Shown piece by piece: positions 7,554 through 57,702 of a stretch of DNA of 64,000 nt (the first letter of the stretch is position 1; each line of letters starts with the position of its first letter). The notes beneath the pieces were generated by a model. The model did no database searches. It was given only the letters and a program-made list of their open reading frames with translations, and was not told the DNA's origin. This stretch comes from an uncultured Coriobacteriaceae bacterium (lineage in GTDB: Bacteria; Actinomycetota; Coriobacteriia; Anaerosomatales; CAZWGV01), in assembly GCA_964633595.1 (NCBI GenBank), contig CAZWGV010000002.1, positions 211-64,210 of the forward strand. Reading direction: 5' to 3'. The translations under genes and the position numbers were made by a program.

Positions 7554-8916
7554 GGACCGTCTCACCCGCGGGGTGGACACACCTCAACCGGTCCAGGACG
7601 CCGTCTCCGCAGGCAAGGTGGTGGCCAGGAACACGGCGACGCAGGACGCCAAGGACGCCATCAAACGTGATGTCCACTACCTCTTGATAGAGGAGCTCGG
7701 GACGCAGCTGGACGGGGACGACCCCTCGATTCGCTTCCAGATCGAGCGGAAACTCCAGGAACTCATCGGACAGGAGTCTACGCCGCTCTCGGCAGAGGAC
7801 AAGCGCGAGATCGTGGGCGACGTCCTTGACAACATGCTCGGCTACGGCCCCATCACGCCGCTGCTGGCTGACCCGAGCGTCACGGAAGTGATGGTGAACA
7901 ACGCCGACCGGGTCTACATAGAGCGCGGGGGCAAGATTCTCCAGACCGACAAGCGCTTCATCGACGAGCAACATCTTGTGCGCACGATCGACCGCATAGT
8001 CAGCCAGGTGGGTCGCCGAATCGACGAGAGTTCGCCAATGGTCGACGCTCGCTTGCCTGACGGCTCGCGCGTCAACGCCGTCATCCACCCGCTCGCCATC
8101 AATGGGCCGATGCTGACGATACGCAAGTTCGCGCACGATCCGTTCACGGTCGACGACCTTATCGGCTTCGGTACCCTTGACCCCAAGGTCGCGTCATTCC
8201 TGGACACGTGCGTTCGAGGGCGATTGAATGTAGTGATCTCGGGGGGCACGGGCAGCGGCAAAACAACGCTGCTGAACGTTATGTCCTCGTTCATCCCAGC
8301 CGATGAGCGCATAGTCACCATTGAGGACGCCGCCGAATTGCAGCTTCGGCAGGAGCATGTGCTGCGTCTCGAGTCCAGGCCCCCCAACATCGAGGGCAAG
8401 GGGCAGGTCACAATCCGGGATCTCGTCCGCAACTCGTTGCGCATGCGTCCCGATCGCATCGTCGTGGGCGAGGTACGTGGTGGCGAGGCGCTCGACATGT
8501 TGCAGGCTATGAACACCGGCCACGATGGCTCTCTCACGACCATCCACGCGAACTCCCCCCGCGACGCCCTTGCGCGCATCGAGACGATGGTACTAATGAG
8601 CGGGCTCGACCTGCCGGTCCGGGCCACTCGCGAGCAGATTGCATCGGCGCTCAACTTGCTTGTGCACCTCGCTCGACTCCGTGACGGTACGCGGCGTGTC
8701 GTCCAGGTCTGCGAGCTGCAGGGCATGGAGGGTGACACTGTCGTGCTTCAGGATCTGTTCTACTTCGACTACTCCATGGGCATCGACGACTCAGGTCGCT
8801 TCCGGGGACACATCAAGGCCACCGGCCTCCGCCCGAAGTTCTCGCGGCATCTCGAGGATCTTGGACTACCGATGCCCGCTGAGATGTTCGAGTACGAGCC
8901 TCCCGAGAAGAGGTGA
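7543..8916 (+). CDS. tadA: TadA/CpaF secretion ATPase
   Basis: Walker A ISGGTGSGKTTLLN, Asp box RIVTIEDAAELQL, Walker B RPDRIVVGEVRG and His box GHDGSLTTIHANS. ATG 7543 overlaps the tadZ stop. The upstream part of the 7462 ORF overlaps tadZ and is not coding. Confidence 0.95.
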   Translation: MSLRDRLTRGVDTPQPVQDAVSAGKVVARNTATQDAKDAIKRDVHYLLIEELGTQLDGDDPSIRFQIERKLQELIGQESTPLSAEDKREIVGDVLDNMLGYGPITPLLADPSVTEVMVNNADRVYIERGGKILQTDKRFIDEQHLVRTIDRIVSQVGRRIDESSPMVDARLPDGSRVNAVIHPLAINGPMLTIRKFAHDPFTVDDLIGFGTLDPKVASFLDTCVRGRLNVVISGGTGSGKTTLLNVMSSFIPADERIVTIEDAAELQLRQEHVLRLESRPPNIEGKGQVTIRDLVRNSLRMRPDRIVVGEVRGGEALDMLQAMNTGHDGSLTTIHANSPRDALARIETMVLMSGLDLPVRATREQIASALNLLVHLARLRDGTRRVVQVCELQGMEGDTVVLQDLFYFDYSMGIDDSGRFRGHIKATGLRPKFSRHLEDLGLPMPAEMFEYEPPEKR

Positions 8917-41347: not shown

Positions 41348-41505
41348 GAGGCATCTCGCAAGGGTTGCCCCAGCCTCTCTGAGCGGCGATCTTGGGATAT
41401 ACTCGCGCGTGTGCACAGGCTTGTGCACGTGAGCGAGCGATCGGGGCGTCTCGCAGGTTGGTATCGGGCCTGAATGTCTCCCAGGTCGCACCCGGGGAGG
41501 TCTCT

Positions 41506-42177
41506 GTGCGCCTGTACCGCATAGGCGACAAGGTCGTCAGTCTGGAGAGGCTGGTCGACGAGGTTTCTGCGATCCTCTCCGAGCGTGCGGGCGGCTCCAC
41601 TCAGCTGGAAGTCGCCGTGACTCATGGGGTCCAGCGTTCCTTCGTGTCCTTCCTGGAGTCGCTCGGTGAGGTCCGTCGTGGTCCCAAGGTCGCGCTCGTC
41701 GCCTTCCCTGTGGCCAATGCCGATGAGGTCAGAGCACTGGCCGAGGAGAGCGCGGTCGACTTCATCCTCGTGCTCTCTCAGTCGGAGCGAGAGGGCATTG
41801 AGGGAGGCGATCCCGCCGAGGTCTTCAACCGGCTGCTGGAGACGCTCGCCACTCTCACCGGGTACGACGTGGTGATCTTGCTGGCCAGCGATTGGCGCAT
41901 CAACCTCGTCGAGCGCATCCTGGGCAGTGAGGTTGTGGGCATATCGCTGGGCCAGTCCCCCCTGCGCGAGGATGTCAAAGTCGACGTGGCCGAGCTTGGC
42001 GAGGTGCTCGATGCGGTCATGTCGGCCAGTGCGCGCCGGAGTGGGGCCGGGGCGGGCGAGCGCTGGCGCAAGGGTGCGGCTAGCGAGGTCGCCGGCGATG
42101 TCATAAGGAAGGCCGCCGGCGCGGCCCGGGGGGCTGCCGGCGCCGCCAGGAGGTGGAACACATCAAAGAGGTCGTGA
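41506..42177 (+). CDS. hypothetical protein with N-terminal XRE-like HTH
   Basis: GTG 41506 follows GGGGAGG. The N-terminus LYRIGDKVVSLERL...GGSTQLEVAVTHGVQRSFVSFLESLGEVRRG looks like an HTH. The rest has no motif I recognise. Confidence 0.55.
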   Translation: MRLYRIGDKVVSLERLVDEVSAILSERAGGSTQLEVAVTHGVQRSFVSFLESLGEVRRGPKVALVAFPVANADEVRALAEESAVDFILVLSQSEREGIEGGDPAEVFNRLLETLATLTGYDVVILLASDWRINLVERILGSEVVGISLGQSPLREDVKVDVAELGEVLDAVMSASARRSGAGAGERWRKGAASEVAGDVIRKAAGAARGAAGAARRWNTSKRS

Positions 42178-42179
42178 GC

Positions 42180-43070
42180 GTGAGCCTGGGTTCATCGGCG
42201 CGCGATCACGAGGTCGAGATCGACCTGCTAGGCGAGCGCTTTCGCATCAGACGCGAGGGAACCGATGGCGATCTCGGCAGGGCGTGCGCTCGCATCGCTG
42301 AGCTAGACGGAGCTGTCGCGGCGTTCGGCATGGGCGGGATCGACATGTACCTGCGTGCCGCAGGGCGCGACTACTGGTTTCGCTCGGCCAAGCCCCTCCG
42401 GAGCGCTGCCAAGCGGACCCCGATCGTAGACGGCTCCGGTCTCAAGGGGGCTCTCGAGGCGTCCACCGTGCGCTACATGATGGACGAGCTGGGCCTGGAA
42501 CTGGGCGGCAAGAGGGTCCTTATGACGTCCGCAGTGGACCGGTATGGCATGGCCGAGGGGCTACGCGACGCCGGCTGCGAGATGGCATTCGGCGACCTGA
42601 TCTACGCCCTCGGGGTCCCCTACCTCATCCGCGACTGGCGAACCCTGGACAGGCTCATCCACACGCTCACGCCGGTGGTGGTGCAGTTGCCGTTCGCCTG
42701 GCTCTATCCCACCGGCGACGAGCAGGACGTTGAGCGGGTCATCCCGGAGCGATACGCGCAGATGCATCGAGAAGCCGACATCGTTGCCGGCGACTGGCAG
42801 TACGTGCGCAAATACATGCCCGAGGGCATGGCGGGGAAGTGGGTGATAACCAACACTACCACCCCCGCTGATGTCGACTTCCTCCGTTCGCGCGGGGTTG
42901 AGTTGCTGGTGACATCGACACCGCGACTGGGTGGACGCTCGTTCGGCACCAACGTGATCGAGGCGGCCATGGTGGCACTCAAGGAAGCCGAGGGCCCCCT
43001 CTCGGAGGCCGAGTATCTGCATATCCTGGGGGAAGTGGGTTTCGCCCCCGATGTTACTTGGCTGCAGTGA
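42180..43070 (+). CDS. conserved hypothetical protein (family often auto-annotated 'quinate 5-dehydrogenase'; function unproven)
   Basis: A long ORF with good coding character (VSLGSSARDHEVEIDLLGERFRIRREGTDGD...). The start is ambiguous among GTG 42153, 42174 and 42180. It overlaps or abuts the upstream gene. Confidence 0.6.
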   Translation: MSLGSSARDHEVEIDLLGERFRIRREGTDGDLGRACARIAELDGAVAAFGMGGIDMYLRAAGRDYWFRSAKPLRSAAKRTPIVDGSGLKGALEASTVRYMMDELGLELGGKRVLMTSAVDRYGMAEGLRDAGCEMAFGDLIYALGVPYLIRDWRTLDRLIHTLTPVVVQLPFAWLYPTGDEQDVERVIPERYAQMHREADIVAGDWQYVRKYMPEGMAGKWVITNTTTPADVDFLRSRGVELLVTSTPRLGGRSFGTNVIEAAMVALKEAEGPLSEAEYLHILGEVGFAPDVTWLQ

Positions 43071-43180: not shown

Positions 43181-43301
43181 GCACCTGTTCAGGCAGGCAG
43201 GCGGGAAGTTGTCGCGGTGCGTTCAGGCCACGTCGGACCTCGGCAGATCGAGGATCGGCGGAATCCGACGGTGTCCCGTCCCTGGCACATTAGGAGCGTG
43301 A

Positions 43302-43991
43302 GTGCGCGTGAACAAGCGGGCTAGGGTCCGGCTCATCGGAGTTACGGTCATCATCGTGCTGTCTGTTGCGGCGATCCTGGTGGGAGTTGCCGGTGACGAT
43401 GGCGCGTTCCAGAAGACGGTGGGCGATGTCGTCGAGGACGCGTCTCTCGTGGGTGAGCGCATCAAGGTCAGCGGCGTGGTGGTCCCGGGCTCGTGGAACA
43501 AGAAGTCGAACCCGATGGAGTTCGACATCAGGGACGAGGGCGCGCCCGTGGGCAGCCCGACTATCAGAGTGGTCTACTCGGGTCAGGTCCCGAGCACCTT
43601 CGGTGACGAGGTCACGGCCATTGTGACCGGTGAGCTGGGCGCCGACGGCATCGTGGCCGCCACCGACCTCATCACCAAGTGCCCCTCGAAGTACTCTTCG
43701 GGCGCAGAGGCGATCACTGTCGCCACGCTGCTGTCCGACAAGGCCTCTCAAGAGGCGAAGACCATCCAGGTGACCGGATTCGTGGTCCCGGGCTCGATCG
43801 GTGAGCCGGGTGCCAACCCCCGCCTGAAGATCCAGGACAAGCGCGATGGGGGAGAGGCCATATCGGTCGTGTATGACGGTGGCTTGTCCGAGAAGATCGT
43901 CGATCTCACCTCGGTCGTGATCACCGGGCATCTCGAGGATGACGGTACATTCACGGCCGCGAATGTGGCCCTCGCTGGGAAGAAGTCGTAG
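43302..43991 (+). CDS. ccmE: cytochrome c heme chaperone CcmE, CXXXY variant, with duplicated OB domain
   Basis: N-terminal TM segment LIGVTVIIVLSVAAILVGV. OB domain 1 ends in LITKCPSKY. A second homologous OB domain (IQVTGFVVPGS...VVITGHLEDDGTF) lacks a heme-binding motif. Confidence 0.85.
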   Translation: MRVNKRARVRLIGVTVIIVLSVAAILVGVAGDDGAFQKTVGDVVEDASLVGERIKVSGVVVPGSWNKKSNPMEFDIRDEGAPVGSPTIRVVYSGQVPSTFGDEVTAIVTGELGADGIVAATDLITKCPSKYSSGAEAITVATLLSDKASQEAKTIQVTGFVVPGSIGEPGANPRLKIQDKRDGGEAISVVYDGGLSEKIVDLTSVVITGHLEDDGTFTAANVALAGKKS

Positions 43992-44066
43992 CATCAGGCC
44001 CGAGGCCGCCCCGCAGGTGGAGGCCCGCGGGAGACAGATGACGTTTTCCTCTGGAGTGGAGGCCGC

Positions 44067-46142
44067 ATGACGACGATCGGCTACCTATTCATGGCGCTCG
44101 GCCTATTGAGTGCCGTGGTGAGCGTCGCTTCTCTGTTCCTTGGGCGTAGTCAGGGCGAGAAGCAAGGGGAGAGCCTGACCAATACCGGCTACATCGCCAC
44201 ATTCGGCGTATTCGCCTTCATCACGCTCTCGAGCCTGGTCATGATCGGTGCGTTCTTCGGTGAGGACTTCAGCTTCCAGTACGTCGTCCAGAATCACCCC
44301 ACGGACGTCTCCAGCCTCGCCTGGCTCTACAAACTCTCGGCGATATGGGCGGGCAGAGAGGGGTCGTTGCTGTTCTGGGCCTGGCTGCTGGCGGGGTTCG
44401 CGGCGTACGTGGCTTACAAGCGGATGGACACCACCGATCCGCTTTCCAACATGGGCATCGCGGTCGCCAACGTAGTACAGACCATCTTCATCGGTGCGCT
44501 GTTCATCGAGACCAACAACCCCTTCAAGGTGAGTCTCCCGGGCTGGGTGGATCCAGCGACCGGCCAGTTGCTGATCAGCGGACAGGGTGTGGGGATGAAC
44601 CCGCTGCTCCAGCACTGGGCGATGATCCTCCACCCGCCGACTCTCTTCGTTGGCTACGCTGGTCTGACCATCCCCTTCGCCTTCGCGATGGGCGCGCTCA
44701 TCGTCAACGACCCGTCGAAGAAGTGGGTCGAGATAGTCGATCGGATCACGGTCTTCTCCTGGCTCTTCCTGGGCATCGGCATCGGCCTGGGCGCCATATG
44801 GGCGTACGTCGTGCTGGGATGGGGCGGGTACTGGGCATGGGATCCGGTGGAGAACGCGTCGCTGCTCCCGTGGCTCACAGGAGTAGGGCTCCTGCACAGC
44901 TTCACCGTCTACCGGAGGCGTGGCGGCTTCAAAGGCTGGGCCGTGATGCTCTCGGCGGTCACCTATGCTCTTGTGGTTCTAGGAACGTTCATCACGAGGT
45001 CGGGCATCGTGCAGTCGGTCCACGCATTTGAGAAGGATCCCATATCGCTAGTGGTGTTTCTGAGCCTGATCCTCGGTTCGCTCGCGGTCGCCGCGGTTGG
45101 ACTTGCCATGCGCTGGGGGACCTTCAAGGTAGCCGACGAGTTCGAGAGCCTGACCTCCAAGGAAGCGGCCTACTACTTCAACAACGTCATCATGCTGATC
45201 GCGGGACTGCTGGTCGCCTACCTCACTCTCACCTCCGCGCTGCCCCGCTGGCTGCCGGGTGGCGGGATGTCCTTCGGTCCGGCGACCTACGACTCGATCG
45301 CGCGACCCGTGGGCATCCTCTACGTCGCCATCATGGCGGTATGCCCGCTGCTCGCGTGGCGGCGCACTGAGGGCGCCACATTCCTGTCGCGGATCAAGTG
45401 GCCGGCGCTAGGCACAGCGGTGCTCGCGGCGTTCATGCTGTGGATCTGGTATACGCAGCTGTGGCCCATCCACCTGCGGACGAATCCTGGGGACAACCCG
45501 TTCACCAACCTAGTCCACGGCTGGTACGCGATCGTCGGGATGGTGGTCGGTGCCCTTGCCGTCTGCGTGCCCATCTGGCTCTTCATCGACGGATCCCGAA
45601 AGCGCGCGGCGGCGAAAGGCCAGTCCGTATTCGCGGCGCTCTCCGACATCGTCTTCAGGGCGAGGACGCAGTCGGGCGGCTACATCACCCACATCGGCAT
45701 CGGCATCATCCTCTTCGGCCTCATCGGGTCGTCGATGTTCGTGGACGACGTCAAGGCGACCGTGGACCGCAGGCAGGGGGCCGCGTTCCAGGCTGGGGGC
45801 TACACCTTCACGTTCCTCGGGATAGACCAGCGCCAACTGGAGAACCGCGACATCGAGACAGTGATCGGCCTTGATGTGAGCGACGCTACCGGGCGCGTTG
45901 TCGGCCGAGTGACGCCAGGCCAGATACAGTACGCGCTGCAGGAGCAGACCAGGCTGAACGTGGACGTGATCACCAAGTTCCTGCGCGACGTGTTCGTGAT
46001 CTTCGAAGGGGCTGACGAGAATACTGTGGCCGTGAACGTGAAGATCAACCCGCTCATCAACTGGGCGTGGGCGGGCTTCGCGATCACCGTCGTCGGTACG
46101 GCCATAGCATGCTGGCCGAAGCGGCGCCCGGCTGCCGCATGA
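44067..46142 (+). CDS. ccmF: cytochrome c heme lyase subunit CcmF
   Basis: A 691-aa polytopic protein with the WWD motif WGGYWAWDPVENASLLPWL. Confidence 0.93.
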   Translation: MTTIGYLFMALGLLSAVVSVASLFLGRSQGEKQGESLTNTGYIATFGVFAFITLSSLVMIGAFFGEDFSFQYVVQNHPTDVSSLAWLYKLSAIWAGREGSLLFWAWLLAGFAAYVAYKRMDTTDPLSNMGIAVANVVQTIFIGALFIETNNPFKVSLPGWVDPATGQLLISGQGVGMNPLLQHWAMILHPPTLFVGYAGLTIPFAFAMGALIVNDPSKKWVEIVDRITVFSWLFLGIGIGLGAIWAYVVLGWGGYWAWDPVENASLLPWLTGVGLLHSFTVYRRRGGFKGWAVMLSAVTYALVVLGTFITRSGIVQSVHAFEKDPISLVVFLSLILGSLAVAAVGLAMRWGTFKVADEFESLTSKEAAYYFNNVIMLIAGLLVAYLTLTSALPRWLPGGGMSFGPATYDSIARPVGILYVAIMAVCPLLAWRRTEGATFLSRIKWPALGTAVLAAFMLWIWYTQLWPIHLRTNPGDNPFTNLVHGWYAIVGMVVGALAVCVPIWLFIDGSRKRAAAKGQSVFAALSDIVFRARTQSGGYITHIGIGIILFGLIGSSMFVDDVKATVDRRQGAAFQAGGYTFTFLGIDQRQLENRDIETVIGLDVSDATGRVVGRVTPGQIQYALQEQTRLNVDVITKFLRDVFVIFEGADENTVAVNVKINPLINWAWAGFAITVVGTAIACWPKRRPAAA

Positions 46143-46873
46143 CGTCCATGGCCGAGGCTCCGAACCTCGCCGTCCAAGTCCAGGGACTGACTCGCGCATT
46201 CGGTGCCAGGAAGGCGCTCGACGGCGTGTCGCTCGACGTTCCCGCCGGTGCCTTCCTCTCGATCTTCGGGCCCAACGGGGCCGGCAAGACCACGCTGGTC
46301 CGGATACTCACAACGCTCACGCCGCCATCCGCCGGCACTGCCTCGGTCCTGGGACTAGATGTGGTGAAGGACGCCGTGGACTTGCGTGGCCGGATCGGGC
46401 TCATCAGTCACAACCCGCTGCTCTACCCTGACCTCACGGCCGAGGAGAACCTGCTCTTCTTCGCGGACATGTACGGTGTGCCGGACCCCAAGCAGCGGGT
46501 GAAGGAACTCCTCGTCCGCGTTGAGCTCGACCATCGCAGGCTCGAGCCGGTGCGGGGGTTCTCTCGGGGCATGACGCAGCGGCTTTCGATCGCGCGAGCT
46601 CTCCTGCACGAGCCCGAGGTGCTGTTCTTGGATGAACCGTACTCTGGCCTAGACCCGCACGCCATGGACATCCTGGACTCGCTGATCGAGCAGATACGCG
46701 CGCAGCACTCCTTCGTGATGATCAGTCACGACCTCGCAAAGGGACTCGAGCTTTGCAGTCACGCGCTCATCCTCTCAAAGGGATCCGTTGTGATGTTCGA
46801 GCCCAAGGACCGCATCGACCCAGATGCGTTCGCCGCGACGTATCGCTCGACGGTTGGGATGGGGGTGGCCTGA
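46139..46873 (+). CDS. ccmA: heme exporter ATP-binding protein CcmA
   Basis: ATG 46139 overlaps the ccmF stop (ATGA). Walker A GPNGAGKTTLVRIL, Walker B LLHEPEVLFLDEP, and RGMTQRLSIARAL. Confidence 0.9.
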   Translation: MTSMAEAPNLAVQVQGLTRAFGARKALDGVSLDVPAGAFLSIFGPNGAGKTTLVRILTTLTPPSAGTASVLGLDVVKDAVDLRGRIGLISHNPLLYPDLTAEENLLFFADMYGVPDPKQRVKELLVRVELDHRRLEPVRGFSRGMTQRLSIARALLHEPEVLFLDEPYSGLDPHAMDILDSLIEQIRAQHSFVMISHDLAKGLELCSHALILSKGSVVMFEPKDRIDPDAFAATYRSTVGMGVA

Positions 46874-47578
46874 GTGGGCGCTCTTGGCTGGCGCCAGTTC
46901 CGAGCGATGCTCCGCAAGGACATCGTGATGGAGCTTCGGACGCGCGAGATGGTGACCTCGATGGGCCTGTACGCCCTCCTCACGATGGTTGTCTACCAGA
47001 TAGCGCTCTCGCAGGCCGGCACCGCCTTCGATCCCAAGGAGATCGCTGCCGGCCTCCTCTGGCTGGCTTTCATCTTCACCTCGATGCTGGGACTGAACCG
47101 TTCTCTGGTGCACGAGAAGGACCAGGGCTGCATCGACGCTCTACTGCTGTCGCCGGTGGACCGCCCCGTCATTTTCTTCGCGAAGGCGTTCGGCAATCTC
47201 GTATTCCTGCTGGTAGTAGAGATCTTGACCGTCCCCGTCTTCGCCTTCCTGTTCCTTCAAGGCAGAGGCTTCGAAGGTCCGTTGTGGGCTGTCCCCCTCG
47301 TTGTGGTAGCCACATCGATCGGCATCGCCGGGGTTGGCACGCTTCTCGCCACGATGTCGGTGAACACGACCGGGAAGGACTTCATCCTCGCGGTCCTGTT
47401 CATCCCGCTCATGTACCCACTGTTGCTAGCCGCGGTGTCGGCAACCAACGCCGCACTGCTCGGCGGTCAGGCCTATCCGATAGGGATCGTCTGGCAGGGC
47501 CTCGGCATCATAGTAGCTTACGATGCGATAATGCTCCTGGCCGCGTTCGGGCTCTACGAGTTCATCGTCGGCGCCTGA
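46874..47578 (+). CDS. ccmB: heme exporter membrane protein CcmB
   Basis: The GTG directly follows the ccmA stop. A six-TM protein beginning RQFRAMLRKDIVMELRTRE, typical of CcmB. Confidence 0.85.
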   Translation: MGALGWRQFRAMLRKDIVMELRTREMVTSMGLYALLTMVVYQIALSQAGTAFDPKEIAAGLLWLAFIFTSMLGLNRSLVHEKDQGCIDALLLSPVDRPVIFFAKAFGNLVFLLVVEILTVPVFAFLFLQGRGFEGPLWAVPLVVVATSIGIAGVGTLLATMSVNTTGKDFILAVLFIPLMYPLLLAAVSATNAALLGGQAYPIGIVWQGLGIIVAYDAIMLLAAFGLYEFIVGA

Positions 47579-47614: not shown

Positions 47615-48370
47615 GTGCGCAGACTGAAGATCGCGTTCGTCTTGCTGCTGATAGGCGGTCTTCTCACAACCGCCGCCTACTTCCTCGCGTTCTTCTACGC
47701 CGAGGTGCCGAGCTTTGGTACCGCGGAGCTTCCTGAGGCGATCGAGACGGCCAGGCCACTCGTGCGCGTGACTCCTGAGGGGGGCATCGTCTACGGGAAG
47801 GCTGACTTCGCGCAGAAGATATTCTACTTCCACGTTCCCGTGGCCGAGGCATCGTTCCTGGTACTCATCATCGCGGCGTACTTCTCGGTTAGGTTCCTGA
47901 CCACCAAGCGCAAGGAGATCGACACGCGGGCTCGCGTGGCGATGGAGGTCACTCTGCTGTTCGTGACGCTCACCATGATCACCGGCGTGCTGTGGACGCG
48001 GGCCGCGTGGGGTGTTTGGTGGCAGTGGGAGCCTCGGCTGACCACGTACTTCATCCTCACTCTGCTCGTGATCGGCTACTTCGTGCTGCGGAACTCGGTC
48101 GAAGACGAGGAGCGGCGCGCGACCTACGCGGCGGTCTTCGCGATCGTGGCGGCGATCGACGCCCCGATCTCGTTCATGGTCACCAGGCTGCTGCCCTCGG
48201 TGCACCCGGTAGTCTTCACAGAAGGGGGCATCGCAACATCGCAATTGATACCGTTCATCGTCGCCCAGGTTGGGATGCTGATGATCGGGTACGCGATCTA
48301 CGCGACGAGGATGAGCGAGGAGCGGCTCAACGAACGTTTGCAGGCAGTGAAGGCTGCCTTGGAGGGCTGA
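47615..48370 (+). CDS. ccmC: heme exporter protein CcmC
   Basis: WWD motif WTRAAWGVWWQWEPRLTT. RBS AGAGGAG. Confidence 0.9.
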   Translation: MRRLKIAFVLLLIGGLLTTAAYFLAFFYAEVPSFGTAELPEAIETARPLVRVTPEGGIVYGKADFAQKIFYFHVPVAEASFLVLIIAAYFSVRFLTTKRKEIDTRARVAMEVTLLFVTLTMITGVLWTRAAWGVWWQWEPRLTTYFILTLLVIGYFVLRNSVEDEERRATYAAVFAIVAAIDAPISFMVTRLLPSVHPVVFTEGGIATSQLIPFIVAQVGMLMIGYAIYATRMSEERLNERLQAVKAALEG

Positions 48371-48425
48371 GGAAGGCGTGACTCGCCCGCGCTACGAGCC
48401 GAGCGAGCAGGAAGGGACGGTGGAG

Positions 48426-48617
48426 ATGGATCCTACAGTCGAGGAGTTGTACACGCTGGTGCTGCCGAACGCCCCATACGTGATAGCCGCGTACGGCATC
48501 TTGTGGGCGGCCCTGGTCGTCTACGTGGGGTTCATCATGCGCCGCGTGATGAGACTCGAGCGGGAGATCGAAGTCGTCGAGGAGTCTGTGGCGCGTCGGG
48601 CGGGTGCGGGGAGTTAG
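48426..48617 (+). CDS. ccmD: CcmD-like small membrane protein
   Basis: A single TM segment PYVIAAYGILWAALVVYVGFIM followed by basic RRVMRLEREI. Position after ccmC. The start could be ATG 48426 or GTG 48378. Confidence 0.7.
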   Translation: MDPTVEELYTLVLPNAPYVIAAYGILWAALVVYVGFIMRRVMRLEREIEVVEESVARRAGAGS

Positions 48618-48762: not shown

Positions 48763-49611
48763 ATGGCGCAGCTGTCTCTCGTCCTGTTCTGGTTCGCGAC
48801 GGCTCTCTACGCCGGCGCGACCGTGCTCTACGGCTACCACTTCCTGTCAAAGCGGTCAGCCTACTCCTGGTACGCGACCTTCCTGACGGGCGCCGGGTTT
48901 TTGTGTCTGACCGCATCCATCGGGTTGCGGTCCAGCGTGACCGACGGTACTGAGCTGACCGGCCCCAACTCGCTAGTGCTGGCTGCCTGGGCCCTGGTGC
49001 TCGTCTACTTCGTGGTCGAGCATGTGGTGAAGTTGAAGCTGTACGGTGCGGTTCTTGTCCCCGTGACGGTTGTGCTGCTCGTGGTGGCACAGCTGCTGGG
49101 ATTGGGAGAGACCACCGGCGATCTCACTGCGGCGCAGCTCGCGCAGCTCGACAATCGCCGCGTCGGGGTGCACGTGGCGCTGGTAGTCTTTGCCAACGCC
49201 GGCTTCCTCGTGGGGGGAGTGGCGTCCATCGTCTACCTCCTCCAGGAACAGCAACTGAAGAGGCACAGAGCGACCGCGCTGTTCCGGCGGTTGCCCTCGC
49301 TGGCCCAGACCGATCTCTTGGCGCGCCGAGCGGTAGCATGGGCGTTCCCGGCGTACACGGCCGCCTTGCTCCTTGGGATCGTGAGGGCCATCGAAACCGA
49401 CGTGGGCGGATGGTACGCGGACCCGCGCGTGATGATGGCCGGGGTCGTGTGGGTGGTGTTCGGCGCATACCTCTACCTGCACTATCGGCGCGACGTGTCC
49501 GGGCGGACCGCCGCCTATCTGGCCCTGGTGGGCGTCACCACCGTCATAGCGCTCGCCATCATCGCCAGGACACTCCCCATAGGCTTCCACGTCTTCGGCA
49601 TCGGAGGCTGA
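48763..49611 (+). CDS. cytochrome c assembly family membrane protein (HemX/CcsA-like)
   Basis: An eight-TM 282-aa protein with a degenerate Trp-rich segment VGGWYADPRVMMAGVVW. Its size and its position beside hem genes recall Bacillus HemX. Confidence 0.7.
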   Translation: MAQLSLVLFWFATALYAGATVLYGYHFLSKRSAYSWYATFLTGAGFLCLTASIGLRSSVTDGTELTGPNSLVLAAWALVLVYFVVEHVVKLKLYGAVLVPVTVVLLVVAQLLGLGETTGDLTAAQLAQLDNRRVGVHVALVVFANAGFLVGGVASIVYLLQEQQLKRHRATALFRRLPSLAQTDLLARRAVAWAFPAYTAALLLGIVRAIETDVGGWYADPRVMMAGVVWVVFGAYLYLHYRRDVSGRTAAYLALVGVTTVIALAIIARTLPIGFHVFGIGG

Positions 49612-49618
49612 CCTCGGC

Positions 49619-50290
49619 GTGGCCGAGGAGGAGGCACGCTACCCGCTCTACCCGGTCATGCTCGACCTGACCGGAGCGCTAGCGGTTGTCGTGGGCGGCG
49701 GCAGTGCCGCTGAGCGCCGCGCCTCGATACTGGCTCGTCATGGGGCCGATGTCGCCGTGGTCACCTCGGATGTGACCGAGGGTCTGGCGGCGCTGGAGGC
49801 AGAGGGGACCATATCCCTGGAGCGGCGGGAGTACGTTCGTGGTGATCTCGAAGGAGCTCGGCTGGCCATCTGCGTCTCCGGCACGGACGAAGTCCTGGAA
49901 GCTGTCTTTGCGGAGTCGAAGGCCCGAGGCTGCCTTGTCAACGTGGCTGGGCGTCCCGACCTCTGCGACTTCATCCTCCCCTCGGTGTTCAGCAGGGGCC
50001 TGCTTCAGATCGGGATATCCACGCAAGGCAGCGCTCCCGAACTCGCTCGGCGGGTGAAGAAGGATCTTCGCCGCCATCTTGGCCCCGAGTGGGAGCGGTA
50101 CGTGCAGCTTGTGGGCGAGGTACGGGGTCTTGCGGCCGAGCAGATCGGCAGCGAGGCAGAGCGGGAGCGCGTGATGGAGGCCGTACTGGACTCGGACATC
50201 TTGGCGCGAGTCCGCGCGGGCGCGGATATCACCGCCAAGAGCGTACTGGCCGAGTTCATGGGCCGCGGCGGCGGAAGCGCCGGACGCTAG
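49619..50290 (+). CDS. precorrin-2 dehydrogenase / sirohydrochlorin ferrochelatase family (siroheme synthase N-terminal type)
   Basis: YPVMLDLTGALAVVVGGGSAAERRASILARHGADVAVV (Rossmann fold) and CLVNVAGRPDLCDFILPSV. Length ~220 aa, as for SirC/Met8. Confidence 0.85.
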   Translation: MAEEEARYPLYPVMLDLTGALAVVVGGGSAAERRASILARHGADVAVVTSDVTEGLAALEAEGTISLERREYVRGDLEGARLAICVSGTDEVLEAVFAESKARGCLVNVAGRPDLCDFILPSVFSRGLLQIGISTQGSAPELARRVKKDLRRHLGPEWERYVQLVGEVRGLAAEQIGSEAERERVMEAVLDSDILARVRAGADITAKSVLAEFMGRGGGSAGR

Positions 50291-50308
50291 CTCCGGGGAG
50301 GAGGTCTC

Positions 50309-51217
50309 GTGTTCGAGGGCGCCAGAGTAATCGTCACCGGCGGGTCGAGCGGCATTGGCCTGGCCACCGCCGAGGCGTTCGCCAGGCAGGGAGCGGACGT
50401 GGGTATCGTGGCCCGAGATCGCACCAGGCTCGAGGCCGCACGTGAGGCGGTGGAGAGCGCCCGCAGGAGTGCCTCGCAGAGGGTGCTTGCGCGCAGCGCA
50501 GACCTGTCCGTCTGGGAGCAGGCGCGAGAAGCAGTCGACTTCATGGCGCAGAGCGGGCTCGAACCCGACATCCTGGTGAACAGCGCCGGTGTGATCCTGC
50601 CCGGAGAGTTCGCCTCCATGCCGCTCGAGCGCCTCACCCAGAGCATGGAGTGCGGCTACTACTCGGTCGTCTACCCCTGCAGGGCCGCCGTTGGGCGGAT
50701 GATCGAGCGGAGAGCCGGACACATCGTGAACGTCGGGTCGGTAGCGGGCTTCCTCGGCGTATACGGATACACGGGATACGCTGCGGCGAAGTACGCCGTG
50801 ATGGGCTTCACTGAAGCTTTGCGCTTCGAGATGAAGCCCTACGGTGTGAAGGTGTCGATCGTGTGCCCGCCGGACACCGACACGCCGGCGCTCGAACACG
50901 AGAAGACGCTGAGGCCGCCCGAGACCGATGTGATCGCCGGCAACATCCGCGCGATCTCGCCGCAGAAGGTCGCGAATTCCATCGTGCGGGCTGTGGAGAC
51001 TGGTCGCTACTACGTCATCCCTGATCGGGCGAGCCGATTCTACTTCCGGCTCAAGGGCCTCCTGCCCGAGGTGTTCTTTGCGATCGTGGACTCAGATGTG
51101 CGCAAAGCCAGGCGGGCCAGAGCGGCTGATGATAGCCTCTCGACGGGCGGGTCGCCGCCCGCCTCCGAGGCCTCCGATAGCGTCGCACAAACGTTGCCTG
51201 AGCAGGCCGAAAGGTGA
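50309..51217 (+). CDS. short-chain dehydrogenase/reductase
   Basis: Motifs VTGGSSGIGLATA, NSAG and YAAAKYAV (catalytic YxxxK). RBS GGGAGGAGG. Confidence 0.9.
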   Translation: MFEGARVIVTGGSSGIGLATAEAFARQGADVGIVARDRTRLEAAREAVESARRSASQRVLARSADLSVWEQAREAVDFMAQSGLEPDILVNSAGVILPGEFASMPLERLTQSMECGYYSVVYPCRAAVGRMIERRAGHIVNVGSVAGFLGVYGYTGYAAAKYAVMGFTEALRFEMKPYGVKVSIVCPPDTDTPALEHEKTLRPPETDVIAGNIRAISPQKVANSIVRAVETGRYYVIPDRASRFYFRLKGLLPEVFFAIVDSDVRKARRARAADDSLSTGGSPPASEASDSVAQTLPEQAER

Positions 51218-51223
51218 TAGAAT
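51194..51223 (+). promoter_or_regulatory. candidate hemA promoter (-35 TTGCCT, extended -10 TGATAGAAT)
   Basis: TTGCCT at 51194-51199, an 18-bp spacer, then TGaTAGAAT at 51215-51223, overlapping the SDR stop codon. It lies 150 nt upstream of hemA. Confidence 0.5.
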
Positions 51224-51372
51224 CACCGCGTTCAGGCCGAGTGCAGGTGGTGCGTTCAATAGCTCTGCCGTGATCGCCCTCGCCGGGCCTGCTTGCCTGA
51301 ACAACAACGCACCGCTCCGGCGAGGGCGTCCCTCATTGAGGGCGAGACAGCGGACGAGGCGGACCTGAGGCT

Positions 51373-52725
51373 ATGCACCTGACGCTGGTCGGGCTAAGCC
51401 ACAAGACAGCCCCGATCGAGATACGCGAGAAGCTGACCTTCCCCGCTCATCGGCAGGAGGAAGCTCTCGCGCTCCTCACGTCTTCGCCCCAGATCGCCGA
51501 GGCGGTCGTGCTCTCCACCTGCAACCGTACAGAGATCTATGCCGTCGCGTCGGTTGAGGGCGGCGCGGACGCGGTCGTCGACTTCATGGCCGACTACCAC
51601 GCGTTGGACCGTCATGAGCTGGTGCGCTACCTCTACTTCTCGGATGGCGAGGCGGTCGTCAAACATCTCTTCAGAGTGGTGGCGTCGCTTGACTCGATGG
51701 TCATCGGAGAAGCGCAGATCCTCGGCCAGGTCAAAGAGGCCTATGAGCACGCGTTCGACAACGGTGCCTGCTCTCGGGTGTTCAACAAGCTCTTCCGCCA
51801 GTCGTTCGAGGTGGGAAAGCGGGTGCGCACCGAGACTGACATAGGCGAGAGCGCCGTATCCATCAGCTACGCCGCGGTGGAGCTCGCCAAGAAGGTCTTC
51901 GAAACGCTGGAGGGGCGGGCCGTCCTCATCGTCGGAGCGGGCAAGATGAGCGAACTGACGGCGAAGCACCTCAAGAGCAACGGAGTCGAGTCTTTCCTGG
52001 TGGCCAACCGCACCTACGAGCGAGCTGTGGAGATGGCGGCGTCCTTCGACGGCGAAGCCATACGCTACGAGGACCTCTTCGAGCGTCTTCGCGACGTGGA
52101 CATCGTGATATCCTCCACCGCCTCGCCCGAGTACGTGATCAGGAAGGACCGCCTGGCCGAGTCGATGCGGGGGCGTCGAGGTCGGCCGCTCTTCCTCATC
52201 GACATCGCTGTCCCGCGTGACATCGAGCCGGACGTCAACGAGATATCCGAGGTCTTCCTCTACGACATCGATGACCTGAGCGGTGTTGTCGAGGCGAATC
52301 TCGAGGAGCGCATGCGGGAGGCTCGCAGGGCCGAGGGGATCATCGACGAGGAGATGTCGGTCTTCGAGCGCTGGCTCGAGTCGATGGAGGTCGTTCCCAC
52401 GATCGCGGCCATGCGCGCTCAGGCCGAGCAGATCCGGCAGGCCGAGATGGAGAAGGCGCTGAGGCGTCTGGGCGGCCTCTCGGAGAAGGAAATGAAGACG
52501 ATCGAGGCTCTGACAGGCGCGATCGTGAACAAGATGCTGCACGCTCCAACGAGTAGGCTCAGGGATGCGTCGACGGAGAAGGACGGGTACGAGTACGTGG
52601 AGGCCGCGCGCTTCTTGTACGGACTAGAGGAAGGCGGCGAACGACACCGCCACGGACTGCTGCGCAACCTGCTGGGGCGCGGTGAGAAGAGCCACAAGCG
52701 CGAGACAGGAGATCAGCTTGGCTGA
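51373..52725 (+). CDS. hemA: glutamyl-tRNA reductase
   Basis: Motifs LVGLSHKTAPIEIREKL, STCNRTEIY, GEAQILGQVK and VGAGKM. Confidence 0.95.
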   Translation: MHLTLVGLSHKTAPIEIREKLTFPAHRQEEALALLTSSPQIAEAVVLSTCNRTEIYAVASVEGGADAVVDFMADYHALDRHELVRYLYFSDGEAVVKHLFRVVASLDSMVIGEAQILGQVKEAYEHAFDNGACSRVFNKLFRQSFEVGKRVRTETDIGESAVSISYAAVELAKKVFETLEGRAVLIVGAGKMSELTAKHLKSNGVESFLVANRTYERAVEMAASFDGEAIRYEDLFERLRDVDIVISSTASPEYVIRKDRLAESMRGRRGRPLFLIDIAVPRDIEPDVNEISEVFLYDIDDLSGVVEANLEERMREARRAEGIIDEEMSVFERWLESMEVVPTIAAMRAQAEQIRQAEMEKALRRLGGLSEKEMKTIEALTGAIVNKMLHAPTSRLRDASTEKDGYEYVEAARFLYGLEEGGERHRHGLLRNLLGRGEKSHKRETGDQLG

Positions 52726-53692
52726 GCAACGCACCCAGCTGGTGATCGGTACCCGGGGCAGCAAGCTGGCCCTATGGCAGTCCAACTACATCAAGGATCG
52801 CCTTGAGGAGATCACCGGGCTTTCGGTGAGCCTTTGCGTCATCAAGACGACCGGGGACAAGATTCTGGATGTGCCCCTGGCAAAGGTGGGAGGAAAGGGA
52901 TTGTTCACCAAAGAGATCGAGGTGGAGCTCTCGGCGGGCAACGTGGACCTCGCCGTCCACTCGATGAAGGACGTCCCGACGGAGCTGCCAGAGGGTCTGG
53001 TGATCGGGGCCACGCCTACGCGGGTCGACTCGCGCGACGCCATCGTGAGCGGCAGAGGGTGGGATCTTGGCGCCTTGCCCCAGGGGGCTCGGCTCGGTAC
53101 GAGCTCGCTCAGGCGGCGCAGCCAGGTGATGGCCGCTCGGCCGGACCTGGAGATCGTGGACGTTCGCGGGAACCTCGACACGCGGATGCGCAAAGCCGAG
53201 GAAGGTGAGCTCGACGGTGTTATCCTCGCTGCCGCTGGCATTACCCGCATGGGCTGGCAGGAGCGCATCACCCACTACATCGACACTGACACGATGGTCT
53301 CGGCAGTCGGGCAGGGGGCTATCGGCATCGAGATACGCGAGGAAGACCCCTTCATGACCGAGGTCTGCGAGAAGATCTCGGATCCGGAGACCATGGCGTG
53401 TGTGACGGCCGAAAGAGTCGTTATGAGGCGGCTGGAGGGCGGCTGTCAGGTGCCGATCGGAGCGTATGCGCGAGTCGACGGGGACGCGATGGTGATGGAT
53501 GCCTTCGTGGGTTCGGTGGATGGCACGAAGACCGTCCGCGACCGCCTCGAGGGTTCGGCGGCCGAGCCGTTGGCTCTCGGCGATGAGATGGTCCGTCGCC
53601 TGCTCGCCCTGGGCGCGGGGGAGATCCTCGAGGAGATCCGGGGGGCCGCGGATGAGGTGGGGGGAAGAGTCGACCGTTTGCTCGAGACGTAG
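52718..53692 (+). CDS. hemC: hydroxymethylbilane synthase (porphobilinogen deaminase)
   Basis: Motifs IGTRGSKLALWQS, GGKGLFTKEIE, SSLRR and LEGGCQVPIG. TTG 52718 is preceded by CAGGAG; the alternative start is GTG 52682. Confidence 0.93.
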   Translation: MAEQRTQLVIGTRGSKLALWQSNYIKDRLEEITGLSVSLCVIKTTGDKILDVPLAKVGGKGLFTKEIEVELSAGNVDLAVHSMKDVPTELPEGLVIGATPTRVDSRDAIVSGRGWDLGALPQGARLGTSSLRRRSQVMAARPDLEIVDVRGNLDTRMRKAEEGELDGVILAAAGITRMGWQERITHYIDTDTMVSAVGQGAIGIEIREEDPFMTEVCEKISDPETMACVTAERVVMRRLEGGCQVPIGAYARVDGDAMVMDAFVGSVDGTKTVRDRLEGSAAEPLALGDEMVRRLLALGAGEILEEIRGAADEVGGRVDRLLET

Positions 53693-53704
53693 GGGGAGAC
53701 CGGC

Positions 53705-54511
53705 ATGGCACAGCCGGTGAGCGACGGGCCGCTATCGGGCAAGACCGTGGTAGTCACAAGGTCGCGCGCGCAGGCTGCCGAGCTGACGATGCAGCTTGGC
53801 GCCCTGGGCGCCGAGGTCTTGGAGTTCCCGGTTATCGACACTGTCGAGCCCGAAAGCTGGGAGCCGGCCGACTCGGCCATCCGGAACCTGGAGACCTACA
53901 ACTGGGTCGTCTTCACCTCAGCCAACGCCGTGAACGCCTTCTTCGACCGGATGGCGACGCAGGACATGGACGCCCGCCAGCTCGCGGGCTGCCGCGTCGC
54001 GGCTGTCGGACCAGCCACCGCCACACGGTGCGAGGAGAGGGGAGTCCGCCCTGACTTCGTGCCCGAAGAGCATCGGGCAGAGGGGGTCTTGGACGGGCTG
54101 TGCCGTCGCGGTGTGGGTAGCGGGAGCCGCGTGCTCATCCCCCGCGCACTGGAGGCCCGGGAGGTGCTGCCGGATACGCTGCGCGAGCAGGGTGCGCACG
54201 TGGATGTGGTACCCGTGTACAGGACCGTACCCGCGCCCGGGGCGCCCGGCGTGCTCGAGCGCATGGCCGAGGGGCAGGTGGACGCCGTGACGTTCACGTC
54301 CTCGTCCACCGTGCGCCACTTTCTGCGGTTGCTCAAGGGCAGCGCGGCGACCCTGGAGCAGGTGATCGCCGTCTCGATAGGACCCGTGACCTCCGAGACG
54401 GCTCGCCGCAGCGGTCTTGCGGTCGCAGCCGAGGCCACACACTCCACGGTGGCGGGCTTGGTTCAGGCGATCGTGGATCTCTCCTCCCCGCAGGCGGGAC
54501 ATCACGAATGA
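53705..54511 (+). CDS. hemD: uroporphyrinogen-III synthase
   Basis: The ~265-aa size, VVVTRSRAQAAEL, WVVFTSANAV and FTSSSTV (two HEM4 half-domains), and the position after hemC. Confidence 0.85.
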   Translation: MAQPVSDGPLSGKTVVVTRSRAQAAELTMQLGALGAEVLEFPVIDTVEPESWEPADSAIRNLETYNWVVFTSANAVNAFFDRMATQDMDARQLAGCRVAAVGPATATRCEERGVRPDFVPEEHRAEGVLDGLCRRGVGSGSRVLIPRALEAREVLPDTLREQGAHVDVVPVYRTVPAPGAPGVLERMAEGQVDAVTFTSSSTVRHFLRLLKGSAATLEQVIAVSIGPVTSETARRSGLAVAAEATHSTVAGLVQAIVDLSSPQAGHHE

Positions 54512-54633
54512 GTTCGAAGGCCGCCATGATCGCGGATTCCGCCTGGGTGAAGAGCGCTTCGAGCGCCGTTGACAAACCAACATGCGCTGGGCATTGTATT
54601 GTGGCCGTTGCCCCCCAGGGGCGCGGTTCGGAC

Positions 54634-54709
54634 GGGGATGTAGCTCAGCTGGGAGAGCGCTACCTTCGCACGGTAGAGGCCGGCGGTTCGAATCCGCTCA
54701 TCTCCACCA
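54634..54709 (+). tRNA. tRNA-Ala (anticodon CGC)
   Basis: A 76-nt cloverleaf folded by hand: acceptor stem GGGGATG/CATCTCC with G3:U70, D arm GCTC-AGCTGGGA-GAGC, anticodon arm CTACC-TTCGCAC-GGTAG, T arm GGCGG-TTCGAAT-CCGCT, and an encoded CCA. Confidence 0.92.
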
Positions 54710-54722
54710 TCGGGTACCATGT

Positions 54723-54750
54723 CGAGGCGACCTCTTCGCGGGTCGCCTCG
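54723..54750 (+). terminator. 10-bp hairpin downstream of tRNA-Ala
   Basis: CGAGGCGACC (54723-54732), an 8-nt loop, then GGTCGCCTCG (54741-54750). No U-tract. Confidence 0.35.
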
Positions 54751-54837
54751 GCCGCATGTGCATGACGGCAGATGTGTCGGGAGCCGGCGGTTGCGTCGAG
54801 GCGTGACATCGGCATACGACTCATAAGGAGGCTTCGG

Positions 54838-55068
54838 ATGGCAGGTGGCGTAGCTCCTGAAGGTATCACCGCGTGGGTAGCTCAGCACGGCCAGGTCCTA
54901 TTCTTTTTCGCCCAGATCGCGTTCTGGCTCCTGCTCGTAGGGGTACTCGCGTGGGCGACCTGGATCTTCAAGCGGTATGTGGACTTCGCTACAGGTGCGG
55001 TCGGCGAAGAAGAGGGCGGGGAGTCCTCCGATGACGAGGCTGTCTCCATCGAGGAGTTCGTCGAGTGA
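54838..55068 (+). CDS. small membrane protein with acidic C-terminal tail (hypothetical)
   Basis: ATG 54838 is preceded by TAAGGAGG. One or two TM helices (VLFFFAQIAFWLLLVGVLAWATWIF), then EEEGGESSDDEAVSIEEFVE. Confidence 0.55.
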   Translation: MAGGVAPEGITAWVAQHGQVLFFFAQIAFWLLLVGVLAWATWIFKRYVDFATGAVGEEEGGESSDDEAVSIEEFVE

Positions 55069-55133
55069 CTCACGTTCTGCCCGATCCCCTCGCGCGGGTT
55101 CGCGCCGAGTCCGGGAAGTGAACGGAGGGCGCC

Positions 55134-56114
55134 ATGGAGTTCCCCATCCACAGACCGCGTAGGCTCAGGCGCAGCGAGCTGTTGCGCTCGATGGTGCGCG
55201 AGACCACTCTCGATGCGGGTGACCTGATCTACCCGCTCTTCGTGAAGCCCGGGCAGGGAGCACGCGATGAGGTTGCGTCGATGCCGGGCGTCTTTCAGCT
55301 TTCCCTCGACGAACTGCCTGCGGAGATCGATGAGCTCGGCGAGCTGGGTGTACCCGCGGTGATCCTGTTCGGCCTGCCGGAGTCCAAGGATGAGGTAGGC
55401 AGCGGTGCCTATGCCGAGCAGGGCATCGTGCAAGAGGCGATCCGGGCCATCAAGTCCCACTCTCCCGAGTTCCACGTGATCACGGACGTGTGCATGTGCG
55501 AGTACACCTCCCACGGACACTGCGGCGCTCTCGACTCCGAGGGTCATGTCATGAACGACGTCACGCTGGAGCTGCTCGCGCAGACCGCGGTGAGTCACGC
55601 GGAGGCGGGCACCGACATGGTGGCGCCTTCCGACATGATGGATGGCCGAGTAGCGGCCATACGCTCGGCTCTCGACGCCGAGGGCTACACTCGCGTGCCG
55701 ATCATGAGCTACGCGGCGAAGTACGCCTCGGCCTACTACGGACCCTTCAGGGACGCGGCGGACTCGACACCGTCTTTCGGGGATCGCCGCGCGTATCAGA
55801 TGGATCCCGCCAACAGCGACGAGGCGCTGCGCGAGGTGGCGCTGGATATCGACGAGGGCGCTGACATCGTCATGGTCAAGCCCGCGCTCGCCTACATGGA
55901 CATCATCCGCCGAGTGAAGGATGAGTTCGGCTATCCCACGGCCGCCTACAACGTCTCTGGTGAGTACGCAATGGTCAAGGCAGCGGCCGCCAACGGCTGG
56001 CTCGACGAGGAGCGCGTGGTGCTGGAGACGCTGACGGCCATGAAGCGGGCGGGCGCCGACCTCATACTCACCTACCACGCAAAGGACGCGGCCCGCTGGC
56101 TGGCCGGGCGCTAG
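55134..56114 (+). CDS. hemB: porphobilinogen synthase (Zn-type)
   Basis: Motifs HRPRRLRR, the Cys-rich Zn site [24 protein letters not shown] and [11 protein letters not shown]. Confidence 0.95.
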
Positions 56115-56201
56115 CCGACGGCTTCGATCCCGGCACGCGAGTAGCTCCTCGTTGCCCCGCCCGCAAGGCGCGGCACCACGGCTTCGTCCGGAGGAACACC
56201 G

Positions 56202-57701: not shown

Positions 57702-57702
57702 C

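Follow-up and report, generated by a model that had tools for sequence, protein, structure and literature searches.

Does the ccmE gene at this locus encode a haem chaperone whose haem-binding motif lies between two barrel domains, and, if so, what might the second barrel contribute? To our knowledge, CcmE is depicted in every current mechanistic model of System I as a single barrel that bears a flexible tail at its C-terminus. This tail carries haem from CcmC to CcmF, as in the "buoy" model (PMC10457321). The original prediction for the window (the whole stretch of 64,000 nucleotides analysed here) proposed a CcmE with two OB domains, of which only the first carries a haem-binding motif. The tandem-OB CcmE family was defined here as proteins of about 220-235 aa with two PF03100-type barrels and a Cys motif only between them. 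The window protein was the founding query of this family, and it has all of these features.

Gene call and domain layout

The ccmE gene is located at 43302..43991 on the forward strand and encodes a protein of 229 aa, which is exactly the translation of the predicted open reading frame. The gene has a GTG start, and an AGGAG Shine-Dalgarno sequence is located 5 nt upstream of it (43292-43296). The homologues start at query residue 3, and the alignment to the NCBIfam CcmE models begins at residue 4. An in-frame alternative GTG at 43308 would give the N-terminus MNKRA, as in nearly all homologues. The GC content of the three codon positions (0.63/0.45/0.83) is like that of the other genes in this 66% GC window, and identifies the forward frame as the coding frame. 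An antisense open reading frame (43290-43994) was also considered as a real gene; it was ruled out by codon-position GC, as its GC3 is only 0.63. A scan for promoters and terminators around ccmE found nothing useful.

The protein contains a membrane anchor, a first OB domain, an inter-domain segment with the haem-binding motif, and a second OB domain, all on the forward strand. The N-terminal anchor (residues ~5-29, 43314..43388) was assigned from the sequence and from a helix at residues 5-29 in the AlphaFold2 (AF2) model. The residues before it (NKRARVR) are basic, and the N-terminus of CcmE would therefore be cytoplasmic under the positive-inside rule, with the OB domains outside. OB domain 1 comprises residues 34-125 (43401..43676), as defined by the PF03100 match, the alignment to 1sr3/8ce8, the AF2 strands, and residue conservation. 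The haem-binding motif C127-P-S-K-Y131 (43680..43694) was located by alignment with E. coli CcmE and by the motif count among the homologues. It belongs to the inter-domain segment of residues 126-139 (43677..43718), for which the family consensus TKCPSKYESATGALxV and the AF2 model were used. OB domain 2 comprises residues 134-225 (43701..43976), and was assigned from the PF03100 match, the BLASTP comparison with domain 1, the AF2 strands, and dN/dS.

Sequence and structural analysis of the two barrels

The PF03100 (CcmE) profile matched the whole protein in two stretches, with a total of 104.7 bits (gathering cutoff 24.6). When the halves were scanned separately, residues 1-133 scored 66.6 bits and residues 132-229 scored 42.1 bits against the same cutoff. 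The NCBIfam CcmE models also match both halves; the equivalog models match below their full-length cutoffs (71 vs 126), and such scores are expected for a Cys-type member that has diverged. In a BLASTP comparison, 91 residues of domains 1 and 2 aligned with 33% identity (E = 3e-9). A short pre-barrel segment is part of the repeat; its sequence is G-A-F-x-x-T-V in the first domain and G-A-E-x-x-T-V in the second. Thus, the whole extracytoplasmic part was duplicated.

Two independent AF2 models were obtained, one for the window CcmE with 45 sequences (pLDDT 86.1) and one for a 53%-identical homologue with 120 sequences (pLDDT 82.6). Each model contains two five-stranded barrels, with the barrels at pLDDT ~90. 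In the window protein, the strands of domain 1 are residues 53-60, 72-77, 87-92, 105-112, and 117-125; those of domain 2 are residues 155-161, 175-180, 183-190, 204-211, and 217-225, with four residues after the last strand. A Foldseek search of the PDB with the CcmE model gave known CcmE structures as the best matches (8ce8_E, 1sr3, 1lm0, and 2kct). The proposal of two OB domains is therefore upheld by the profile scan, with one PF03100 match per half, and by structure prediction, with two β-barrels; neither analysis returned a single OB domain.

A long protein of this kind might also be read as an artefact of one assembly, in which a frameshift or mis-assembly had occurred or ccmE had been fused to its neighbour gene. 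There is practically no chance that this is correct, since the same architecture is found in hundreds of independent assemblies (NCBI, JGI, ENA, and Logan), the two halves share a single frame with uniform codon bias, and a separate ccmF begins after a 75-nt gap. The family-wide conservation of the two-domain CcmE rules out a frameshift or fusion artefact, and the extension is a family trait rather than a frameshifted neighbouring gene or an error.

Haem-binding motif and domain 1

In E. coli CcmE, H130 binds haem covalently, and Y134 is the axial ligand (PMC10457321). Alignment to the solved CcmE chains showed that C127 and Y131 of the window protein correspond to these two residues. By homology with the characterised CcmE proteins, haem would be attached by Cys127 and ligated by Tyr131. 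Among the best 120 of 637 homologues, the motif is CPSKY in 119 and CPSRY in one. In E. coli CcmE, F37, F103, L127, and Y134 are said to make up the haem platform, reportedly from the work of Enggist et al. in 2002/2003 and Harvat et al. in 2009. Domain 1 keeps the conserved CcmE loop VPSTFGD, in which F100 aligns with E. coli F103, and also retains F36 and I124.

A Cys at the haem position of CcmE defines "System I*" (Allen 2006 / Goddard 2010, as reviewed in PMC3601427), and CPSKY is its most frequent motif (PMC3601427). System I* with a covalent Cys-haem CcmE has been experimentally established in Desulfovibrio (PMC3601427) and Methanosarcina (PMC9084895), and Chloroflexi and Firmicutes are further groups in which System I* CcmE occurs (PMC3601427). 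The CxxxY variant had been described in the original prediction as one of archaea and sulfate reducers. The Cys-type site is indeed present, but the motif is less unusual than this description implied, given its occurrence in Chloroflexi and Firmicutes. The CPSKY motif is already known, and the unusual part of the protein is the second barrel after it.

The motif (residues 127-131) follows the last strand of domain 1 directly, at the end of this domain where it had been placed, and it has no equivalent in domain 2. It falls within an inter-domain segment of ~8-14 residues, so that the haem-binding segment is an interdomain linker as proposed. It is not in a free C-terminal tail: 98 residues, which include the second OB domain, come after it.

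Residue loss and selection in domain 2

The two domains were each aligned with E. coli CcmE, and residues were counted over 120 family members. Domain 2 ends with ...FTAANVALAGKKS at the stop codon, where domain 1 has ...VAATDLITKCPSKY. Domain 2 contains neither a Cys nor a His/Cys-x3-Tyr motif, and the Tyr position is missing as well, in agreement with the predicted motif-less second copy. The residue Y36 of domain 1 (F in the window), near E. coli F37, is replaced in domain 2 by Gly136 (Glu in the window). F100 of domain 1, which is present in 120/120 members and corresponds to E. coli F103, is replaced by Met199 (101/120; Ile in the window). I124 (E. coli L127) is replaced by Ala or Ser223, and C127 (E. 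coli H130) by Gln/Glu/Asp/Lys226. Y131 (E. coli Y134) has no equivalent, as the chain ends before this position.

Other residues of domain 2 are well conserved. R174 and G209 are invariant; F175, P196, and F217 are nearly so; the fold-determining glycines are kept; and the platform loop has the consensus LPxGMxDG. The window CcmE and its closest relatives depart from the domain 2 consensus at four positions (F175L, P196S, G198K, and M199I), and none of these positions can therefore be strictly essential.

The retained CcmE fold, with its own conserved version of the platform loop, raises the question of whether domain 2 binds a second haem non-covalently, so that the protein would act as a two-haem carrier or buffer feeding multihaem cytochromes. 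The clade encodes many such cytochromes (PMC9686372), and Met199, found in 101 of the 120 homologues, could in principle ligate iron. However, Met199 is not conserved in the window CcmE or its nearest relatives, domain 2 has no conserved His, Cys, or Tyr, and neither the Cys and Tyr nor any of the three residues at the platform aromatic/aliphatic positions are retained. Because these platform residues are lost, domain 2 is probably not a second haem site, and the two-haem explanation is improbable.

Selection analysis showed that domain 2 is maintained by purifying selection. Over the 12 closest gene pairs, the NG86 dN/dS values are 0.08-0.21 for domain 2 and 0.02-0.28 for domain 1. The mean BLOSUM distance is 0.68 for domain 2 vs 0.62 for domain 1, which makes domain 2 the slightly faster-evolving one. 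This faster rate, and the loss of every residue tied to known chemistry, might suggest that domain 2 is a functionless relic of the duplication or a passive spacer. Yet the dN/dS values of domain 2 speak against such a relic, and so does the persistence of its invariant residues between lineages that are only 32-45% identical. The length of CcmE is also constant, at 222-234 aa in 118/120 (best 120 of 637 homologues), and domain 2 was not missing from any of the lineages seen with an intact ccm operon, the short forms being frameshifted or truncated contigs. A decaying relic was ruled out by the dN/dS values together with the invariant residues; since domain 2 is under selection, a pure relic or spacer is very improbable.

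Family distribution and evolution

Homologues of the window CcmE were searched in a library of 5.8 billion proteins (90%-identity clusters), and 637 matches were identified. The best 120 of these are all 222-256 aa long and contain CPSKY or CPSRY. In a 50%-identity-clustered library, about 55 two-domain representatives were found, reaching down to 32% identity. Beyond them, the matches are single-domain CPSKY proteins of the ordinary kind, 125-150 aa long and with a short hydrophilic tail. The family-specific D1 and D2 HMMs gave one match each, in order, in the two-domain representatives. In one-genome-per-species data, ~65 genomes carry a two-domain ccmE, and all of them are MAGs of uncultured Coriobacteriia, Anaerosomatales, or "Actinomycetota"; the best genome match is only 58% identical. 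The architecture is conserved throughout a clade of uncultured, Gram-positive Coriobacteriia. The family members are annotated in the databases simply as "CcmE", and full-text literature searches yielded neither an account of a two-domain CcmE nor one of CcmE in Coriobacteriia. A few records titled "Eubacteriales" carry the same gene order, and these look like mislabelled bins.

A neighbour-joining tree was reconstructed from 116 domain sequences. The domain 1 sequences form one clade, nested among the single-domain CPSKY proteins; the domain 2 sequences form one clade on a long branch. A few "single" sequences fall inside the D1 and D2 clades; these are apparently pieces of two-domain genes, cut off at a contig end or by a frameshift. 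The D1-D2 identity is 24% within the same protein vs 23.5% across different proteins. This equality indicates one old duplication, with no gene conversion since; a recent duplication or gene conversion was ruled out by these identities and by the separate D1 and D2 clades. Domain 2 arose by one early duplication in a Coriobacteriia clade.

The Ccm loci of Chloroflexi and other Actinomycetota (L071-L079) encode an ordinary single-domain CPSKY CcmE. The view that domain 2 is a general adaptation to the monoderm envelope is disfavoured, as the monoderm Chloroflexi and the other Actinomycetota have the single-domain form. Cys-less two-domain copies occur outside ccm operons, and these suggest that the tandem-OB scaffold may have, or may acquire, another role.

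The ccm operon and a possible adaptor role of domain 2

In the window, ccmE heads the operon ccmE-F-A-B-C-D, and all of the following genes of the operon are on the forward strand. The ccmF gene (44067..46142) encodes a haem lyase of 691 aa (PF01578 + PF16327; TIGR00353). The ABC ATPase gene ccmA (46067..46873; TIGR01189, 116.5 bits) is given with its longest-ORF coordinates, and its true start is probably later. It is followed by ccmB (46874..47578; TIGR01190), ccmC (47615..48370; TIGR01191, 102.8 bits), and a gene for a ccmD-family small membrane protein (48378..48617; PF04995, and TIGR04391 with 27.5 bits against a cutoff of 24). Downstream of the operon are, in order, genes for a CcsB/HemX-like membrane protein, a sirohaem-synthase N-terminal-type dehydrogenase, and an SDR, and then hemA/hemC/hemD/hemB. 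After the hem genes, a radical-SAM protein gene (56202-57701) matches the profile of the haem b synthase AhbD with 493.6 bits (cutoff 500). The gene order from two family-less genes upstream of ccmE through hemA is conserved in ~60 related loci.

In the related order Anaerosomatales, the cultured members have a wall of the Gram-positive type, and their 17-18 multihaem cytochromes c require a maturation system of this kind (PMC9686372). If the numbers in these cultured relatives are a guide, there would be plenty of substrates for the Ccm system.

No CcmH, CcmG, CcmI, or CcdA was found among the ~45 window genes scanned with Pfam/NCBIfam, or in the ±8 kb flanks of the related loci. In these flanks, a search for the LRCxxC (CcmH) and WCxxC (CcmG) motifs and for multihaem open reading frames returned only spurious frames and a DnaJ-type zinc finger. 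System I* works without CcmH/G, and about one third of bacteria with a Cys-type CcmE do have CcmH (PMC3601427).

The genes not found at these loci are relevant to the possibility that domain 2 is an adaptor for a substrate or a partner. An apo-CcmE-like barrel, permanently free of haem, would then hold the apocytochrome or CcmF beside the haem loop, and would replace CcmH/CcmI. Apo-CcmE has been reported in a ternary complex with CcmI and apocytochrome c, which counts in favour of this role. It is also suggested by a review citing Verissimo et al., according to which CcmE may act directly on apocytochromes (PMC12285233), by the functioning of System I* without CcmH/G noted above, and by the conservation of domain 2 despite its lost haem residues. 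However, the single-domain System I* CcmE proteins do without a second domain, and neither a conserved hydrophobic groove nor a feature for binding peptides was identified in domain 2. Nor does CcmF have a clade-specific insertion as a sign of a co-adapted docking site; only differences of 7 and 11 residues were seen. An adaptor that replaces CcmH/CcmI is therefore regarded as unlikely, although it deserves more weight than a second haem site or a relic.

Domain geometry and proposed mechanism

Barrel 1 ends only about 8 residues ahead of the domain 2 unit. With this short separation, the haem-bearing segment is a short tethered loop, and the distance from domain 2 to the haem can be no more than a few tens of angstroms. 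How the barrels are oriented towards each other is uncertain in the AF2 models (pTM 0.64 and 0.51), which have their lowest ectodomain confidence in the CPSKY block (block pLDDT 82 and 70). Co-evolution was analysed by a home-made mean-field DCA with 229 sequences (~128 effective), in which the couplings of the membrane helix to the OB domains served as the null. The signal is weak, with three inter-domain couplings above the null (A114-I177, V118-Q156, and L112-T142). These couplings connect the β4-β5 hairpin of domain 1 to the helix, β1, and β2 of domain 2. A search for a D1-specific conserved surface that might mark the D2 interface was uninformative, as only G101 and T125 stand out.

Based on these analyses and on the known chemistry of CcmE, a working scheme may be proposed. 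CcmE would be anchored in the cytoplasmic membrane via its single N-terminal helix, and OB domain 1 with the adjoining CPSKY segment would perform the known chemistry. CcmC (with CcmD) would deliver haem, which Cys127 would attach and Tyr131 would ligate. CcmAB would then release the haem-loaded chaperone, and the haem would be handed to CcmF and attached to apocytochromes. In this scheme, domain 2 would be a haem-free accessory barrel that stays beside the haem loop; it might shield or position the bound haem, or dock CcmC/CcmF or the apocytochrome. The position of the motif between two barrels might alter the presentation of haem to CcmF.

Overall, we consider it reasonably probable that the gene encodes a working Cys-type System I* haem chaperone, with domain 2 as a haem-free accessory barrel beside the haem loop. 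A more specific form of this explanation describes CcmE as a two-part device: barrel 1 would carry haem on an internal loop, and the haem-free barrel would cap the haem or hold the apocytochrome or CcmF, replacing CcmH/CcmI. This specific form is put forward only tentatively, and it may well be wrong.

Comparison with known systems

The closest characterised likeness is with the System I* CcmE of Desulfovibrio desulfuricans/D. vulgaris (PDB 2KCT), which is among the top sequence and fold matches to the window CcmE. As here, an N-terminal anchor leads into an OB barrel, and C127-P-S-K-Y131 comes next. CcmH and CcmG are not in the operon in Desulfovibrio System I*, and neither was found at this locus. 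Desulfovibrio makes haem via a sirohaem-dependent route, and the AhbD-like gene in the window suggests a further likeness. However, the Desulfovibrio CcmE, like other single-domain CPSKY proteins, has a single domain and ~125-150 aa, and stops a few residues past the Tyr with a short hydrophilic tail, whereas the window protein has a second barrel of 92 residues at this place. The hosts are also different: Desulfovibrio is a diderm, and the host of the tandem-OB CcmE is a monoderm actinobacterium.

The CcmE of Methanosarcina acetivorans is also of the Cys type (CXXXY), and C120 is needed for its haem attachment; its streamlined Ccm system is without CcmH/I (PMC9084895), neither of which was found at this operon. 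It is a single-domain protein, and the archaea are without CcmD, whereas this operon has a CcmD-family gene.

The CcmE of Escherichia coli (1SR3; 8CE8 chain E) shares the fold, the anchor, the platform loop, the Tyr ligand, and the partners CcmABCD and CcmF with the window protein. It uses His instead of Cys, and its motif is in a flexible C-terminal tail of ~30 residues, which ends the protein (PMC10457321). E. coli requires CcmG and CcmH, but neither was found at this operon.

Two consecutive OB barrels in one chain are also known from other tandem OB-fold proteins (Teb1 AB, POT1, and RPA-type). Foldseek aligned the whole CcmE model to the tandem-OB structures 3u58 and 8sh1, with TM-scores of ~0.3 and an rmsd of ~10 Å. 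These proteins bind nucleic acid across both barrels and have no sequence relationship to CcmE, and the likeness is a structural analogy only. The window protein belongs to the CcmE family and to System I*, and it differs from every characterised CcmE by its second, motif-less barrel.

Biological significance

The tandem-OB CcmE does not overturn the Ccm pathway; it bears on how haem is presented to CcmC and CcmF. This is a natural, widespread, and selected CcmE with a haem site tethered at both ends, and it offers a natural test of how much freedom the haem-carrying arm needs. It can also help to map the contact surfaces of CcmE with CcmC, with CcmF, and with the substrate. If the two-part device described above is true, the haem hand-off of System I would need no free C-terminal arm. 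The family also illustrates neatly how a domain of a chaperone was copied and the copy given a new use, as a partner domain that is catalytically "dead" and yet conserved. Finally, the tandem-OB CcmE sets apart cytochrome c maturation in the OPB41/Anaerosomatales-type Coriobacteriia, which are Gram-positive subsurface bacteria that depend on many multihaem cytochromes for iron and sulfur respiration.

Start codon and upstream genes of ccmE

The two-domain ccmE gene of the window has two candidate in-frame GTG start codons, at positions 43302 and 43308. The N-termini of the homologues (MNKRA...) correspond to a start at 43308; the AGGAG sequence at 43292-43296 is better spaced for the GTG at 43302 than for that at 43308. 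Two genes lie upstream on the plus strand, encoding proteins of 261 aa (41392-42177) and 305 aa (42153-43070, directly before ccmE), and neither protein matched a family in searches of Pfam and NCBIfam. Both genes hold the same place, after coaX, in most of the approximately 60 related loci compared, and this conserved gene order is their sole tie to cytochrome maturation.

Sequence variation among the two-domain CcmE proteins

The loop of domain 2, which is otherwise well conserved, is present in a relaxed form in the window CcmE (residues 192-205, positions 43875-43916), which reads GGLSEKIVDLTS, whereas the family consensus is GALPxGMxDGSQ. The window protein shares this relaxed loop with its closest relatives, which suggests that the role of the loop, whatever its nature, has been loosened specifically in this lineage.

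The haem-binding motif also varies. The homologues P0126, P0128, and P0132 form a two-domain subgroup that has the Cys but not the Tyr ligand, with KCPEK-K or KCPEKQL in place of KCPSKY. In the related locus L070, from a Coriobacteriia MAG, a ccmE copy (8001-8621) is frameshifted and fragmented, and CPSKY is still readable; since no ccmF follows it, this copy probably represents either a pseudogene or a misassembly.

The haem Cys is lost in two-domain CcmE-like genes at the related loci L080 (2532-3236), L082 (233-913), and L083 (499-1179), and also at L084-L086. Neither ccmF nor any other ccm gene adjoins these copies; next to them lies either a cation-efflux gene or a gene for an OYE-type flavin oxidoreductase. 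The motif region of the Cys-less proteins reads KVPVTY in P0207 and INQPAEY in the P0197/P0274 cluster; these proteins retain the anchor and the two barrels, together with the VPxTFG loop and the Tyr. These genes could be relics left once the ccm operon was lost, or could encode a repurposed non-covalent haem protein.

The downstream haem-synthesis cluster

The ccm operon is directly continued by a haem-synthesis cluster (48763-57701, plus strand), in the order CcsB/HemX-like membrane protein, sirohaem-synthase-type dehydrogenase, SDR, hemA, hemC, hemD, hemB, and an AhbD-like gene of the radical-SAM haem b synthase type. The SDR has no assigned role, and its position in the cluster is conserved. 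Opposite hemB and the AhbD-like gene, the minus strand carries an open reading frame of 949 aa (54882-57731) that matches no family and has a poor codon bias; it seems to be a spurious antisense ORF of high-GC DNA. The gene content of the cluster implies that haem would be made by a sirohaem-dependent route, as it is in sulfate reducers and archaea, two groups in which Cys-type CcmE also occurs.
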